DNA of 58,929 nucleotides from Vicinamibacteria bacterium. GTDB lineage: Bacteria; Acidobacteriota; Vicinamibacteria; Marinacidobacterales; SMYC01. A program made the position numbers and the translations under genes. Below the pieces are notes generated by a model. That model was not told the DNA's origin and ran no database searches. It saw only the letters and a program-made list of their open reading frames with translations. Positions 54,031-58,929 of the stretch are shown in pieces (position 1 is the first letter of the stretch; every line of letters begins with the position of its first letter). Location of the stretch: contig DASPGQ010000218.1 in the NCBI GenBank assembly GCA_035620555.1, positions 1 through 58,929 of the forward strand, written 5' to 3'.

Positions 54031-54744
54031 ATGCGAACGTTCGCCATCCTGGGAATCGTACTCGCTCTCAGTAGCGGCGCGACGGCGTCTCAAAGCGATG
54101 AGCAGGTTCGCGCGACGATCGAGAAGGCCCTCGAAGACGCGGAAATCAAGGGCCTCGCGGTCTCGGTCCAGGGCAAGACCGTGAGCCTGAAGGGCCGGGT
54201 GCGAAACGTATTCGACAAGGAACAGGCGCTCGAGCTGGCGCTTGCCGAGGCGTCGATTGAAGAAGTCGATGCCGATATCGAAGTTTCCCAAGCGGAGAGC
54301 GATCGCGAGCTCGGCGAGCAGGTCGTGAAGGAGCTTCGAAAGTACAGCCGTTTCACCGTTTTCGACGATGCCAGCGCATATGTCGAGGGCGGCAGAGTGG
54401 TGCTTTTCGGTTGGGTGACCGAGCCCTTCAAAAAGGAAGAGCTCCAGAAGAGGCTTCGTGACGTCATCGGCATCCAGGAGTTTTCCAACGACATCGAAGT
54501 GCTGCCCACGTCACAGTCGGACGAACGCTTGCGGCAAGCGCTCTGGAATCGGCTCTATCGGGATCCGACGTTCTCGGACTTCGCCTCCATGACCATCCCC
54601 CCCATTCACATCATCGTTTCGCGAAGCCGCGTCATCCTCACCGGGGTGGTCAACAACCAGCTCATGAAGCAAAAGGCCGAGTCGATCATCCGCCAGACAC
54701 CCGGAGTGCTCTCCGTCGAGAGCAGGCTACGGATTGGAAGCTGA
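54031..54744 (+). CDS. periplasmic BON-domain protein (three BON repeats, OsmY-like)
   Basis: Signal peptide MRTFAILGIVLALSSGATA. Three repeats end in (V/R)V(S/V/I)L(K/F/T)G(R/W/V)V (GKTVSLKGRV, GGRVVLFGWV, RSRVILTGVV). A TAGAAT and GGGAGG lie upstream. Confidence 0.8.
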   Translation: MRTFAILGIVLALSSGATASQSDEQVRATIEKALEDAEIKGLAVSVQGKTVSLKGRVRNVFDKEQALELALAEASIEEVDADIEVSQAESDRELGEQVVKELRKYSRFTVFDDASAYVEGGRVVLFGWVTEPFKKEELQKRLRDVIGIQEFSNDIEVLPTSQSDERLRQALWNRLYRDPTFSDFASMTIPPIHIIVSRSRVILTGVVNNQLMKQKAESIIRQTPGVLSVESRLRIGS

Positions 54745-54990
54745 CCGCTGCTGGCGGCGGCCGTAGGCGACGAGACGTAGACCACGACATTGACGACGAC
54801 GAGGAGGACGCCGAGAACGACCTGAACCGCACGATCGAGACCAGGATGTCGGAATCGCTTCGACGATGTCTGGACGAGATGATGATCGGCGGAACCGACT
54901 ACGTCCCGGTCGTCGCCAGCACCACCAACGACTGAGAGCGGAGGGACGGCTCTCGAATCGGAGCAACCGGCCTCGCGGAATTTTCCTTTG

Positions 54991-57492
54991 ATGTCCATCA
55001 ACGAGCGTGATAGTTTCCAATCCGAAAGCCCGGCGAGTGACCGAGGAGACGGTTCCGGAACGGTGAACGAAACTCAACGAGATCTCGCGCCCGGCACGAC
55101 CCTCGGCCACTTCGAGATTCTCGATCTCCTCGGCGCCGGGGGAATGGGCACGGTTTACAGAGCGAGAGATTCCGCTCTCCAGCGCGTCGTCGCCCTCAAG
55201 ATTCTTCCCGCCGAGCTCTTCGAAGACGAGGCTGCAAGGGCCCGCTTCCTCCGTGAAGCTCACCTCGCCTCGCAGCTGACGCATCCGAACATCGCCACCA
55301 TCCACGAGATGGCCGAGGAGGGCGGCGTTCTCTTCATCGCCATGGAGCTCGTTCCCGGTCGCAACCTGAAGCAGGCGCTGCGGGCGGGATCCTTGCCGAT
55401 GAGCACGGTGCTCTCGATCGGAGTGCAGGTCTGTGAGGCCCTGGGCGCCGCGCACAAACTCGGGATCGTCCATCGCGACATCAAGTCGTCCAACATCATG
55501 ATGACACCGGACGGACTCGTCAAAGTGCTGGACTTCGGGCTCGCCAAGGCCCTGTCCGAGCCAAACGCGCTCGCGGCGGAAGCAGACGCCACTCCGCTGC
55601 GAAGCCCCCGTCCGGCCCGGGTTCGCGACTCCGCCGACCCTTCGGGCATGACTCTCAAGGGCACGGCTCTCGGCACACCCCCCTACATGTCGCCCGAACA
55701 GGCTTCGGGTCACATGGTTGACGGGAGGTCCGACATCTTCTCCCTGGGAGTCGTGCTGTACGAAGCGGCGTCGGGGGAGCTTCCCTTCCGGGGAGGCAGC
55801 GACCCGGAAGTGCTCGAGGCGGTGAAGCACGCGACCCCTCCCGTGCCCCGCCGCGCGGACGGGCCGATCCTGGACGGATTCCTCCAGGTGCTGAACCGAT
55901 GTCTCGCGAAGAAACCCGAGGAGCGATACGCCTCGGCCGGCGAGGCGCGAGAGGCCCTCGAACGGGTGGTCTCGCGGTTCAGCCAAAAGGCCGGGCCTGG
56001 ATCCCGGACCCGGGTCTGGCTCGCCTCGGCGATCGCAGTCGTATTCGCTCTCTCCGCCGTCGGTTACCGTTTCTGGGGGCAGCCCGGGACCGTCGCCTAC
56101 CCGCACCTTCGAACGATCGGAGTGCTTCCCTTCGAGAACGTCTCAGGAAACGCGGAGGAGAACTACCTCGCGTCCGCGGTGCCGCTCGAGCTGACGTCCC
56201 GTCTGGGACAAGTTCCAACGCTGAAGGTCGTTCCCTGGACGTTCATGCGCCGCTACCGGGAGAAGTCGACGTCTCTCGGCCAGATCCGGCAGGAGAGCGG
56301 GGCGGACGCGGTCCTCGAGGGTGCGGTGGCCTTGGTTCCTTCGGAATCGGGTGGCCGAAGGAGCGTGGTGCGCATCCAGACGCAGCTCTTCGACACGGAG
56401 ACCGGCCTCCTCCTGTGGTCGGACTCGATCGAGAGGGAGCTCGGCGGCTTCCTGCGCGTGCGCGGAGAGATCGCGCAGCAGATCGCCGCCCTTCTTCGAG
56501 TGCAGCTCGCCCAGGGCGAGACGCTTCAGATCGCGAGCTCCCGAGTTGTGGAATCCGAAGCGATGGCCTCTTACCTCCGGGGCCGCCAAGAGCTTTCGGA
56601 TCGCACGGAGGCGAGCCTCAACCGAGCCGTAGAGCATTTTCAGGCCGCGGTCCAGAAGGACTCCGAGTTCGCCGAAGCCTACGTCGGGATGGCCGATGCG
56701 TACAGCCTGCTCAGCGCGTATTGGGGCGTGGTGAGCGCGGACCGCGCGTACGCGCTGGCAGTCGACGCGACCGGACGAGCGCTCGCTATCGACGCCACCT
56801 TGGGCGACGCCTGGGCCGCGCAGGCCTTCGCGCATTATGCGCTGGTTTGGGATTGGTCGAAGGCGCTCCAGGAATTCCAGCAGGCCCTTTCGCTCGCTCC
56901 GCACTCCGCGGATGTGCACCACTGGTACGCGGACTACCTGACGGCCATTGGGCACCATGAAGAAGCGCTCGTTCACAGCCGGCTCGCCGAGTCCCGCTCG
57001 CCGCTCTCACCTGTTTACGGCCGTCGAGTGGCGTGGACGCTGTATTCGGCTCGCCGCTTCGACGAGGCCGTCGACCAGCTGAAAAAGACTTTGCGCGCGG
57101 ACCCGGACTTCGTTCCGGCGAAGACCCTCCTCGCCCGGGCGCTCGTCCAGGTCGGCCGTTACGAGGAGGCTGTCGCCGAGCTCCGGGCGGTGGGGGACTC
57201 CTATTCGGCGATGCTGGCCCAGGTCCACGCGACCGCTGGCAAGAAAGAGGAAGCCAGAGCCGTGCTCGAGAAACTCCTGGCGGGAGAGACTTTGGACCCT
57301 CGTCTTCCCTTCGAGGTGGGGCTCGTCTACGCCGCGCTCGGGGAAATGGAACAGGCGATGGAGTGGCTCGAGAAAGGCTTCCAGGTCCACGACCCGAACA
57401 TGGTGAGCGTGAAGACGAATCCGCTTCTCGACCCCTTGAGGGGCGACGAAAGGTTCGAGGACCTCATGCGAAGACTGGACTTTCCCCCCTGA
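54991..57492 (+). CDS. Ser/Thr protein kinase with TM helix, periplasmic TolB-N-like module and TPR repeats
   Basis: G-loop GAGGMGTVYRA, VALK, HRDIKSSNIMM, DFGLAK and PPYMSPEQ. TM: VWLASAIAVVFALSAV. IGVLPFENVSGNAEENYLA is typical of the periplasmic module in kinase/cyclase-TPR proteins. C-terminal TPRs follow. ATG 54991 is preferred over TTG 54988. Confidence 0.9.
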   Translation: MSINERDSFQSESPASDRGDGSGTVNETQRDLAPGTTLGHFEILDLLGAGGMGTVYRARDSALQRVVALKILPAELFEDEAARARFLREAHLASQLTHPNIATIHEMAEEGGVLFIAMELVPGRNLKQALRAGSLPMSTVLSIGVQVCEALGAAHKLGIVHRDIKSSNIMMTPDGLVKVLDFGLAKALSEPNALAAEADATPLRSPRPARVRDSADPSGMTLKGTALGTPPYMSPEQASGHMVDGRSDIFSLGVVLYEAASGELPFRGGSDPEVLEAVKHATPPVPRRADGPILDGFLQVLNRCLAKKPEERYASAGEAREALERVVSRFSQKAGPGSRTRVWLASAIAVVFALSAVGYRFWGQPGTVAYPHLRTIGVLPFENVSGNAEENYLASAVPLELTSRLGQVPTLKVVPWTFMRRYREKSTSLGQIRQESGADAVLEGAVALVPSESGGRRSVVRIQTQLFDTETGLLLWSDSIERELGGFLRVRGEIAQQIAALLRVQLAQGETLQIASSRVVESEAMASYLRGRQELSDRTEASLNRAVEHFQAAVQKDSEFAEAYVGMADAYSLLSAYWGVVSADRAYALAVDATGRALAIDATLGDAWAAQAFAHYALVWDWSKALQEFQQALSLAPHSADVHHWYADYLTAIGHHEEALVHSRLAESRSPLSPVYGRRVAWTLYSARRFDEAVDQLKKTLRADPDFVPAKTLLARALVQVGRYEEAVAELRAVGDSYSAMLAQVHATAGKKEEARAVLEKLLAGETLDPRLPFEVGLVYAALGEMEQAMEWLEKGFQVHDPNMVSVKTNPLLDPLRGDERFEDLMRRLDFPP

Positions 57493-57528
57493 TTCCGTGA
57501 ACGTCCATGCCAGGCAAGGAGGAGGGAC

Positions 57529-57741
57529 ATGGCAAAGAAAAAGGCAAAGACGAGGGCCGCGAAGAAGAAGAGCAGTAAACCGGTAGAGACGACTCTCGAC
57601 ATCAAGGAGCTGCTGCAGGAGATTTCTGACGCCCAACGGGAGCTGAGTCGTATCCAGGAGAAAATGGCTGGGCTCCGTCCCCTCTGTCTGCGAGTGCGCG
57701 TGCTCAAACTCGAGGATGGAAAGAAGGGCAAGCACAAATAG
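57529..57741 (+). CDS. 70-aa lysine-rich small protein (possible precursor peptide or small nucleic-acid-binding protein)
   Basis: AGGAGG (57517-57522) sits 6 nt before the ATG. MAKKKAKTRAAKKKSSKP, then helical LDIKELLQEISDAQRELSRIQEKM, then GLRPLCLRVRVLKLEDGKKGKHK. The locus is locally A-rich. It ends 30 nt before the SagB-like gene. Confidence 0.55.
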   Translation: MAKKKAKTRAAKKKSSKPVETTLDIKELLQEISDAQRELSRIQEKMAGLRPLCLRVRVLKLEDGKKGKHK

Positions 57742-57770
57742 GAACTCCGACGCATCGCATCCGAGGACGA

Positions 57771-58910
57771 ATGGCCGGGGGAAGGGTACTCTACCGGCGG
57801 TCGCCGAACCTCGTCGGGCACTGGATCGCACGGCGGCTCGTCCTTCGAAACTACGCGACAGGGGTGGTCTCCGCCGCGTCGCCTTCCGTCATTCGGGTTC
57901 TCGACTTCTTCAGCGATTGGCGGACACCCGAGGCGCTGATCGAGGAGATGGGGGTCATCGATCGCGCCCCCGTGAAGCGCCTGCTGACGAGCCTTGTTCG
58001 AAAATCACTCCTGCTGCGGTCCGATCGGAAGCGGACTGCGGCTGAGGAAGGCATGGACGGATGGGCCGAGTGGAACCCGTCCGTCGGATTCCTGCATTCC
58101 GTGAGCCGAGACCTGGATTTCGAGTCGGGAGAGGCGAGCGCGGCTTCCTTCCTCCGGCAGCGCATCGACACGCGCGAGCTTCCCGACCCGGTGAAAGGCT
58201 TTGTCGGATCGGGACACGTCAAGCTCCCGTCTCCCCGCCGCAGCGGAGTCTTCCCCCGCGTCCTTCTCCACCGCCGGACGTGGAGGAAGTTTGGCGCGAC
58301 GTCCCTCGACGCATCCGCTCTCGGAACGCTTCTCGAGCTCACCTTCGGCGTCCAGGCGTGGATGGACCTGGGAGCGCTCGGCCGCGCTCCGTTGAAGACG
58401 TCGCCCTCGGGAGGAGCGCGCCACCCGATCGAGGCGTATGTGCTCGTTCGACGCGTATCGGGGGTGCCGCCCGGGCTCTATTACTACGATCCCCAGGGGC
58501 ACGGCCTCGAGAGGTTGATCCTCGGTGGCGCGTCTCGAATACGGCGCTACCTGCCGGGGCAGCCGTGGTACCGCGAGGCCTCCGCACTCGTCCTCATGAC
58601 CGCGGTGTTCGCTCGAACACAGTGGCTCTATCCGAACCCGCGATCGTATCGAGCCGTTCTGCTGGAGGCCGGACACCTTTGTCAGACGTTCTGCCTCGTC
58701 GCCACCTGGCTCGGGCTCGCTCCCTTCGAGACTTCCGCCCTCGCCGATTCGCTCATCGAGAAGGACCTCGGGATCGACGGAGTTCGCGAATCGGTGCTCT
58801 ACGCCGCCGGGGTCGGACCGAAGCCCGAAGGAATCTCCTGGGCACCGTCCATCGACGGAGAACCGCCCCCGCGATGGATACGCCACAGCCGTGGGCCGAG
58901 GAGCCTTTGA
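57771..58910 (+). CDS. SagB/ThcOx-family (nitroreductase-fold, FMN) dehydrogenase with an N-terminal winged-helix, RRE-like extension
   Basis: SagB-type motifs: LKTSPSGGARHPIEAYV, GLYYYDP and AVLLEAGHLCQTFCLVATWLGL. The first ~110 aa (VIRVLDFFSDWRTPEALIEEMGVIDRAPVKRLLTSLVRKSLLL) look PqqD-like. Confidence 0.75.
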   Translation: MAGGRVLYRRSPNLVGHWIARRLVLRNYATGVVSAASPSVIRVLDFFSDWRTPEALIEEMGVIDRAPVKRLLTSLVRKSLLLRSDRKRTAAEEGMDGWAEWNPSVGFLHSVSRDLDFESGEASAASFLRQRIDTRELPDPVKGFVGSGHVKLPSPRRSGVFPRVLLHRRTWRKFGATSLDASALGTLLELTFGVQAWMDLGALGRAPLKTSPSGGARHPIEAYVLVRRVSGVPPGLYYYDPQGHGLERLILGGASRIRRYLPGQPWYREASALVLMTAVFARTQWLYPNPRSYRAVLLEAGHLCQTFCLVATWLGLAPFETSALADSLIEKDLGIDGVRESVLYAAGVGPKPEGISWAPSIDGEPPPRWIRHSRGPRSL

Positions 58911-58911
58911 T

Positions 58912-58929
58912 ATGCCCGCGCGCTCCGAG
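58912..58929 (+). CDS. 5' end of the next gene (MPARSE...), cut by the window end
   Basis: The ATG at 58912 lies 1 nt after the SagB-like stop codon, which suggests the same operon. The identity cannot be determined from 6 codons. Confidence 0.3.

Follow-up and report, generated by a model that had tools for sequence, protein, structure and literature searches.

A conserved three-gene cassette of receptor kinase, small peptide and predicted RRE-SagB flavoenzyme in soil Acidobacteriota

Contig DASPGQ010000218.1 of a Vicinamibacteria bacterium (assembly GCA_035620555.1) spans 58,929 nucleotides (nt), and this whole stretch is called the window throughout. Near its 3' end, three genes follow one another on the forward strand: a receptor-type Ser/Thr protein kinase of 834 amino acids (aa; 54988-57492), a small peptide of 70 aa (57529-57741) and a flavoenzyme of 379 aa (57771-58910). 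The flavoenzyme joins a predicted RRE (the recognition element of RiPPs, which are peptides synthesized ribosomally and modified after translation) to a SagB-type dehydrogenase domain. Together these genes make up a three-gene cassette that is conserved across soil Acidobacteriota. The original prediction for this DNA had described the small open reading frame (ORF), the enzyme and a further gene as a possible peptide-modification module cut by the window edge. The feature it described is in fact the 3' two-thirds of a complete cassette, whose conserved third component is the receptor kinase with its TPR sensor. This partner was absent from the prediction and lies upstream, within the window, so the module is not truncated. 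A scan for promoters and terminators between the three genes, limited to sigma-70-type sites, found no such site, and the genes are probably co-transcribed. Full-text literature searches returned no description of the cassette.

The small ORF is preceded by a Shine-Dalgarno (SD) region, AGGAGGAGGG (57517-57526, forward strand, read directly), which holds two AGGAGG copies, one 6 nt and the other 3 nt before the ATG. Both the coordinates of the ORF and the AGGAGG noticed earlier at 6 nt are thus borne out, and so is the A-rich patch in GC-rich DNA: A accounts for 45% of the opening 60 nt of the ORF, compared with 18.9% of the window (which has a G+C content of 62.6%), and this places the segment at the 99.97th percentile of 60-nt windows. 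The product contains 15 Lys. It can be divided into a Lys-rich N-terminal extension (aa 1-18), a conserved leader-like segment (aa ~21-50, beginning LDIKELLQEISDAQRELSRIQ), a single, conserved Cys (Cys53, nt 57685-57687) and a 17-aa basic tail, LRVRVLKLEDGKKGKHK, without Ser or Thr. Four related loci (L001, L002, L003 and L087), whose enzymes are 66-78% identical to that of the window, keep the small ORF in frame and behind a strong SD; the peptides differ by in-frame indels and are ~50% identical in amino-acid sequence. Peptides of this clade have in common the Lys-rich start, the pattern L(D/N)L..LL..(I/L)..AQ(K/R)EL.RI and a tail of the form R-x-L-C-x-R-x-R-V-x-K. The 70-aa peptide matches no family in Pfam, NCBIfam (E<=0.1) or PADLOC, and a sequence search against 5.8 billion proteins recovered only itself. 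The identical peptide occurs on two other short contigs, both ending inside the enzyme gene.

The enzyme gene starts 29 nt after the stop of the small ORF. Its C-terminal part is readily classified, as Pfam Nitroreductase (PF00881) matches residues 167-349 (nt 58269-58817, forward strand) with 55 bits (cut-off 23.5) and the NCBIfam model TIGR03605 (SagB family peptide dehydrogenase) matches with 110.7 bits (cut-off 78.4). Among families, TIGR04511 ('putative peptide maturation dehydrogenase') matches best, with E 8e-53 across residues 71-353 and 179.8 bits, below the cut-off of 240; distant relatives of the enzyme score 181-186 bits against the same model. The nearest sequences in the PDB are 3EO7 (a tandem nitroreductase of Anabaena), ThcOx and McbC. 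At the level of fold, the AlphaFold2 model is best matched by ThcOx (E 6e-16 over 374-384 aligned columns, including the N-terminal region), followed by BmdC and McbC, with the cyclodipeptide oxidase AlbA lower (8uc3 and 9exv, ranks 17 and 19). The motifs SPSGGARHP, YYYDP and LLEAGHLCQ, on which the dehydrogenase had been recognized from the sequence, are all present; RRTWRKF, the FMN-phosphate motif, is conserved, as is TSPSGGA. Family profiles, motifs and structural matches agree, and the C-terminal domain is assigned from them as a SagB/ThcOx-type flavoprotein. McbC-type dehydrogenases use a catalytic Lys-Tyr pair (K201/Y202 in McbC; PMC6395948). The Tyr is invariant. The Lys position holds a Lys in 199 of 271 family members, an Arg in 33, a Gln in 24 and a Leu in 7. 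Full-length homologues of the enzyme are abundant, and conservation spans the N-terminal domain too. A lookup of the exact 379-aa protein gave no match.

The N-terminal region had been thought to resemble a PqqD-like winged-helix RRE, with a structure prediction proposed as the check. A model of the first 100 residues, built with 60 homologues, reached a predicted local distance difference test (pLDDT) score of 90.3 and shows a winged helix of beta-beta-beta/alpha-alpha-alpha order, with a beta sheet (strands 8-10, 14-19, 22-27 and 33-35) and three helices (38-46, 53-60 and 65-77). Foldseek places this model, covering the RRE-like domain at aa 1-95 (57771-58055, forward strand), closest to RREs: its best ~30 PDB matches come almost exclusively from the RREs of RiPP enzymes and not from transcription factors, and include TigE, TbiB1, PbtF, MadB, TruD/LynD, MibB, NisB, TbtB, ThcOx, MccB and CteB. 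The TbiB1 and PbtF structures are leader-peptide complexes. E-values for these matches are modest (2e-3 to 0.5). By sequence, ten N-terminal domains gave no match to Pfam PqqD, and profiles of the domain found only weak matches to winged-helix regulators (GntR, IclR, TrmB and LexA). Since sequence profiles do not see PqqD, the assignment of the enzyme N-terminus as an RRE fold rests on the predicted structure. Of 1.84 billion cluster representatives, 288 match the specific N-terminal 165 residues (E<=1e-3), and in almost all of them the match is at the N-terminus of the protein.

Upstream of the small ORF, the receptor was identified by Pfam Pkinase (157 bits), many TPR families and LpoB. Its kinase domain (aa 43-315, nt 55114-55932) carries the Hanks-type motifs VALK68-71 (VAxK), HRD162, DFG182 and SPE235 (APE-like). 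The only hydrophobic segment of the protein forms a single transmembrane helix (aa 341-361, nt 56008-56070), and the LpoB/TolB_N/FlgO-like and TPR sensor region beyond it (aa ~375-834, nt 56110-57489) should be extracytoplasmic. Within this region, residues 438-757 weakly match TIGR04510, mod_pep_cyc (E 9e-7, 27.8 bits, cut-off 400). PADLOC matches of the kinase to PD-T4-6 and mad6 would suggest a defence system; these are generic kinase-domain matches and were set aside.

The cassette extends well beyond this contig. A scan of a one-genome-per-species collection found 404 matching stretches; the best 80 of the 404 are all from Acidobacteriota (Vicinamibacteria, Terriglobia and Acidiferrales). 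A further 80 loci, with enzyme identity as low as 41%, came from a scan of metagenomes. From these relatives we assembled a neighbourhood set of 161 non-redundant related loci, in which every named one is Acidobacteriota, and clustered all ORFs of >=120 aa into gene families. Besides the enzyme, the receptor (kinase/TPR) family is the sole conserved one, found by this clustering at 146 loci; the remaining clusters are antisense artefacts or clade-specific synteny. The position of the receptor was determined in the same set by tblastn with the window's sensor region. The window's arrangement, with the receptor directly upstream and on the same strand, is seen at 90 loci; the receptor is directly downstream and convergent at 38 and elsewhere in the flank at 5, and at 26 the flank is too short to tell. 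The two loci missed by tblastn with the window sensor are L117, which has a kinase-TPR protein by Pfam, and L131, which has only a kinase-domain match about 3.1 kb downstream. Altogether, the receptor gene is adjacent in 128 of the 161 loci, and of the 135 loci whose flanks are long enough, at least 134 have it.

The orthology of the receptor is also specific to its position. Where tandem paralogous kinases occur, only the adjacent copy is orthologous; for example, in L003 the adjacent copy shows 85% (kinase) and 79% (sensor) identity to the window's, compared with 44% and 27% for the other. Such a second kinase-TPR paralogue (~44% kinase and 27% sensor identity to the window's) stands in tandem upstream of the cassette receptor in L001 (682-2793), L003 (1213-3489), L012 and L074. 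In some distant loci the sensor is kept and the output domain is an adenylate/guanylate cyclase (L141, Guanylate_cyc, PF00211, 31 bits), and the L147 receptor keeps the sensor with no output domain. Because the sensor is constant and the output interchangeable, we read the receptor as a signal transducer and not as a peptide-modifying enzyme. The linkage of small ORF, enzyme and receptor holds down to 41% enzyme identity and through the changes in gene order (types A and B).

Small ORFs accompany the enzyme just as consistently. One or two of them sit directly upstream of the enzyme on the same strand, and at nearly every locus other than the window, L001, L002, L003 and L087 an ORF of 45-100 aa with a strong SD occupies the same place. 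This answers a question raised with the original prediction, namely whether homologues of the small ORF co-occur with SagB homologues in related genomes: across the relatives they do. Profiles quantify the association. Among 12,213 six-frame ORFs, a profile of the Terriglobia-type peptides (consensus MAKI.F(T/S)L...AEKKLR...DQKKIDLNLR...C(R/P)P..(F/Y)GQ(T/W)F.TK.K) collected 108 ORFs, spread over 75 loci, and 107 of these ORFs sit directly upstream of the enzyme. The sole misplaced match, in L084, falls 1149-1472 nt after the enzyme start on the minus strand, just downstream of the enzyme gene. For the distant-type peptides, 37 of 37 ORFs are upstream of the enzyme. Beyond its own clade the window-clade profile gave weak matches, 34 of 36 of which are directly upstream (background 6.1%, p about 3e-39), and by eye the window's LDIKELLQEISDAQRELSRIQ aligns with FTLKNVTKEIEKTEKKLKALR of the Terriglobia type. 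As it is kept in frame in four relatives, and as profile matches concentrate directly upstream of the enzyme, the small ORF is judged from sequence not to be a chance ORF. Pfam, NCBIfam and PADLOC hold no family for the small peptides, and 16 peptides from related loci had no NCBIfam match at E<=1.

The tails of these peptides come in distinct types. A Cys is found in 5 of 5 unique tails of the window clade (followed by 8-17 residues) and in 99 of 104 of the Terriglobia type (followed by a median of 16 residues). It occurs in 1 of 31 unique distant-type tails, which always have His or aromatic residues and often show D-x-H-H, GHxF or GGKF repeated 2-5 times, DIPY repeats or F/W clusters. Tandem motifs (2-5 copies of GHSF/GHTF, GGKF(T/S)E(R/K) or DIPY) are seen in the distant-type tails of L117, L125, L144, L156, L157, L162 and L124, and such tails recall multi-core precursors. 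The D-x-H-H tails led us to try the NCBIfam 'NH' peptide family for the distant peptides; this was rejected, with zero matches. Many Terriglobia-type loci (L007, L009, L012-L014, L018, L020-L025, L027-L034 and others) have two tandem paralogous small ORFs between receptor and enzyme, at about -600 to -350 from the enzyme start: a distal 'K-type' copy (FTLK...CRPP..FGQTFTTK) and a proximal 'H-type' copy (FSLHP...CP...FGQWFTT). With a conserved helical leader-like part, variable tails or cores, repeats and paralogues, the small ORFs appear by sequence to have the anatomy of a precursor family. This anatomy comes without a cleavage motif, a protease or an exporter.

The genes flanking the cassette are less constant. 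Downstream, the enzyme stop (TGA, 58908-58910) is followed after 1 nt by an ATG at 58912, as had been noticed, and the window ends 19 nt past the enzyme gene. The six codons in view (MPARSE, 58912-58929, forward strand) can be aligned to a 197-aa ORF of L003 (7393-7986) at its GTG start, and the layout there is the same: stop, 1 nt, start. Pfam and the PDB contain no match to this Ala/Arg-rich ORF, and none of the other related loci has a homologue; a translationally coupled fourth gene exists only in the lineage of the window and L003. In L001 and L002 the next gene after the enzyme is on the opposite strand, and genes downstream of the enzyme differ between close relatives. The fourth gene is therefore a lineage-specific addition outside the conserved cassette, and its earlier inclusion in the module as a coupled downstream gene does not hold. 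The sequence beyond 58929 is known only from the relative L003, because the exact-protein lookup was empty and the other contigs with the same peptide end inside the enzyme gene. In the window, the receptor kinase gene is closely preceded by one for a 237-aa protein with two BON domains (54031-54744, forward strand; 95.8 bits), which is not conserved in related loci.

The neighbourhoods were also searched for the usual company of such enzymes, as had been proposed with the original prediction; in the relatives, none of it is conserved. In the ORF clustering of the 161 loci, no YcaO, ThiF-like protein, protease or exporter is conserved around the enzyme, and there is no second SagB-like ORF cluster. 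Pfam searches of the called genes of L001-L004 gave no YcaO or ThiF-like protein, in related loci with 5-10 kb on each side, and their Pfam lists contain no protease or exporter. The earlier remark that no YcaO was in view, and that the chemistry of a RiPP system here would be atypical, is thus upheld by these relatives.

How does the cassette compare to known systems? By its family matches, the enzyme appears to have its nearest relative in a 'putative peptide modification system' of NCBIfam, and the cassette would work alike. That system, which is uncharacterised and owes its definition solely to genome context, comprises TIGR04511 (SagB_rel_DH_2), TIGR04510 (the mod_pep_cyc cyclase) and TIGR04509, which we take to be its precursor peptide. 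Its three parts are those of the cassette: next to a small peptide there is a SagB-related dehydrogenase, with no YcaO, and a large protein that combines a signalling domain with TPRs. Moreover, TIGR04511 is the best family of the enzyme, the sensor weakly matches TIGR04510, and some relatives have a cyclase instead of the kinase. However, the cassette fails all three cut-offs (179.8 vs 240 bits, 27.8 vs 400 bits and no NCBIfam match for the peptide), its output domain is a Hanks-type kinase, its peptides are another family (Lys-rich, helical, of Cys type or His/aromatic type) and all its named genomes are Acidobacteriota.

ThcOx, SagB and McbC oxidise azolines made by a YcaO cyclodehydratase. 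Like them, the window enzyme has the FMN (flavin mononucleotide) nitroreductase fold and keeps the Tyr of the catalytic pair, and ThcOx is its best structural match. Unlike these enzymes, it is not linked to a YcaO, its catalytic Lys is a Leu, and the putative core is not rich in Cys, Ser or Thr. On these sequence features the cassette, despite its SagB-type domain, would not be a thiazole/oxazole-modified microcin (TOMM) system. A precedent for large kinase/cyclase proteins beside SagB-type genes is the TOMM system kinase/cyclase fusion (TIGR03903). The window kinase domain matches that model (E 7e-35) in its generic kinase domain only, at 120 bits against a cut-off of 706, and the cassette receptor differs from it in having one transmembrane helix and an extracytoplasmic TPR sensor. 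A further parallel is offered by trifolitoxin and the tiarins, for which RRE-bearing SagB-type FMN dehydrogenases have been proposed for non-azole modification, with the precursor gene immediately upstream behind a strong SD (preprint 10.64898/2025.12.02.691738). Tiarin clusters have a TfxB-TfxC pair, a conserved Gln motif and often exporters and immunity aminoacyl-tRNA synthetase (aaRS) genes (preprint 10.64898/2025.12.02.691738). Compared by description, the likeness to TfxB/TfxC lies in the RRE-SagB enzyme and the upstream precursor with its strong SD. In contrast, the cassette has only one enzyme gene, lacks an exporter and includes a receptor kinase as partner; the Gln motif is absent from the tail of the window peptide, and (F/Y)GQ(T/W)F is found only in Terriglobia-type peptides. 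From its gene content and motifs, the cassette does not look like a tiarin cluster.

Our favoured reading, held with moderate confidence, is that a YcaO-independent, leader-guided flavoenzyme oxidises the tail of the small peptide, with the co-inherited receptor kinase/cyclase as a signalling partner. The 70-aa product would be a leader-plus-core substrate whose segment at aa ~21-50 docks on the RRE domain of the enzyme. The FMN nitroreductase-fold domain would then act on the C-terminal tail by a two-electron oxidation or dehydrogenation, whose site in the window's clade is probably at or next to the conserved Cys53. No YcaO cyclodehydratase would be involved, so the chemistry would not be azoline-to-azole oxidation. 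TfxB/TfxC of trifolitoxin and AlbA are precedents for dehydrogenations of another kind by nitroreductase-fold enzymes. The receptor would act not as a modifying enzyme but as a signalling partner, which may sense the mature peptide or couple an outside cue to the cassette.

Patterns of divergence bear on this reading. In partial Mantel tests, leader distances track the RRE beyond the catalytic domain (r 0.69) and the sensor beyond the kinase domain (r 0.41, p 0.001); leader against kinase beyond sensor is not significant (r 0.08). Divergence of the leader may thus be tied more closely to that of the RRE and sensor than to that of the catalytic and kinase domains, a result that is suggestive only because shared ancestry and unequal rates inflate such correlations. 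A separate observation comes from a comparison of 54 Terriglobia-type loci, in which catalytic-domain and kinase distances correlate poorly (r 0.28) and those of RRE, leader and sensor mutually correlate strongly, at 0.7-0.9. This pattern could reflect a rate or saturation effect, or domain-level exchange.

The inflation of the Mantel correlations is one of several points that weigh against the favoured reading. The cassette as a modifying system is putative, since modification, binding and activity are all predicted. The full-length enzyme model is moderate overall (pLDDT 64.8, with a good N-terminal part). In the catalytic pair the window enzyme reads W-L-Y, in which Tyr287 is kept and the Lys is replaced by Leu286. 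On the peptide side, the tail in the window consists, Cys aside, of Arg, Lys, Val and Leu, the families of different clades are not joined by profile search at E<=1e-3, and no target residue is common to the whole peptide family, the distant type being mostly Cys-free. The conserved Cys is the obvious candidate in the window's clade, but with Cys missing in the distant clade and the catalytic Lys of the enzyme replaced, any assignment of the chemistry would be tentative. Neither a signal sequence nor a cleavage motif of GG type is present in the peptide. Together with the lack of a protease or exporter, this leaves a secreted mature peptide unsupported, and the product may stay in the cytoplasm as a modified small protein.

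Other explanations share part of this evidence. The small protein could be a structural or regulatory partner (e.g. a subunit, as AlbB is for AlbA), or a phosphorylation target or adaptor of the kinase, with the enzyme acting on another substrate. AlbA, a nitroreductase-fold enzyme that performs C-alpha/C-beta dehydrogenation, is among the fold matches. In addition, the Terriglobia small protein is conserved over its full length, including the tail C(R/P)P...(F/Y)GQ(T/W)F, and so looks more protein-like than a hypervariable core. The lack of a protease or exporter fits a partner, the kinase looks catalytically competent, and the Lys-rich N-terminus in the window clade suggests nucleic-acid or membrane binding. 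We nonetheless find a partner role rather unlikely, because the N-terminal fold matches RREs that bind peptide leaders, and because the tails vary strongly across clades and come with internal repeats and tandem paralogues, a pattern typical of precursors. Peptide phosphorylation, moreover, cannot be the general role, as the output of the receptor can be a cyclase or absent.

A canonical module for a TOMM or linear azol(in)e-containing peptide (LAP), with YcaO and other genes beyond the window edge or elsewhere in the genome, seems highly improbable. It would account for the enzyme passing the TIGR03605 cut-off and for the conserved Cys of the peptide, and the window does end 19 nt after the enzyme gene. 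However, no YcaO or ThiF-like protein was called in relatives with 5-10 kb on both sides, the receptor is the only conserved neighbour family at the 161 loci, and downstream genes differ among close relatives; a core that is not Cys/Ser/Thr-rich and the Leu in place of the catalytic Lys argue the same way. It is also quite doubtful that the enzyme is a small-molecule oxidoreductase of the nitroreductase family, whose winged helix binds DNA or dimerises and for which small ORF and kinase are mere syntenic neighbours. The absence of a PqqD match in the N-terminal sequence, its weak hits to GntR, IclR, TrmB and LexA, and the modest Foldseek E-values leave some room for this. Yet it is the RREs of RiPP enzymes, not transcription factors, that fill the top ~30 of the fold matches, and mere synteny does not explain a linkage that persists to 41% identity and through changes in gene order.

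Going beyond the favoured reading of a leader-guided oxidation, the cassette could be a self-contained peptide-signal system of Acidobacteriota. The peptides would then be a new RiPP class, with an unknown modification on cores of Cys or His/aromatic type, the mature peptide would be read by the cognate TPR sensor, and leader, core and receptor would diversify together as in pherotypes. We regard this extension as speculative and, for now, improbable. Acidobacteriota are among the most abundant soil bacteria, and to our knowledge their peptide natural products and cell-cell signals are almost unknown. In this context, the cassette brings together a predicted leader-recognising SagB-type flavoenzyme without a cyclodehydratase, small peptides of a new family and a dedicated receptor. 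Should the peptide be modified by the enzyme, SagB-type chemistry would extend beyond azoline oxidation, and the products would constitute a new class of RiPPs. For the purpose of the peptides, the fixed linkage to a sensor kinase or cyclase provides a testable route, and a function would be given to the families of the NCBIfam 'putative peptide modification system' too.

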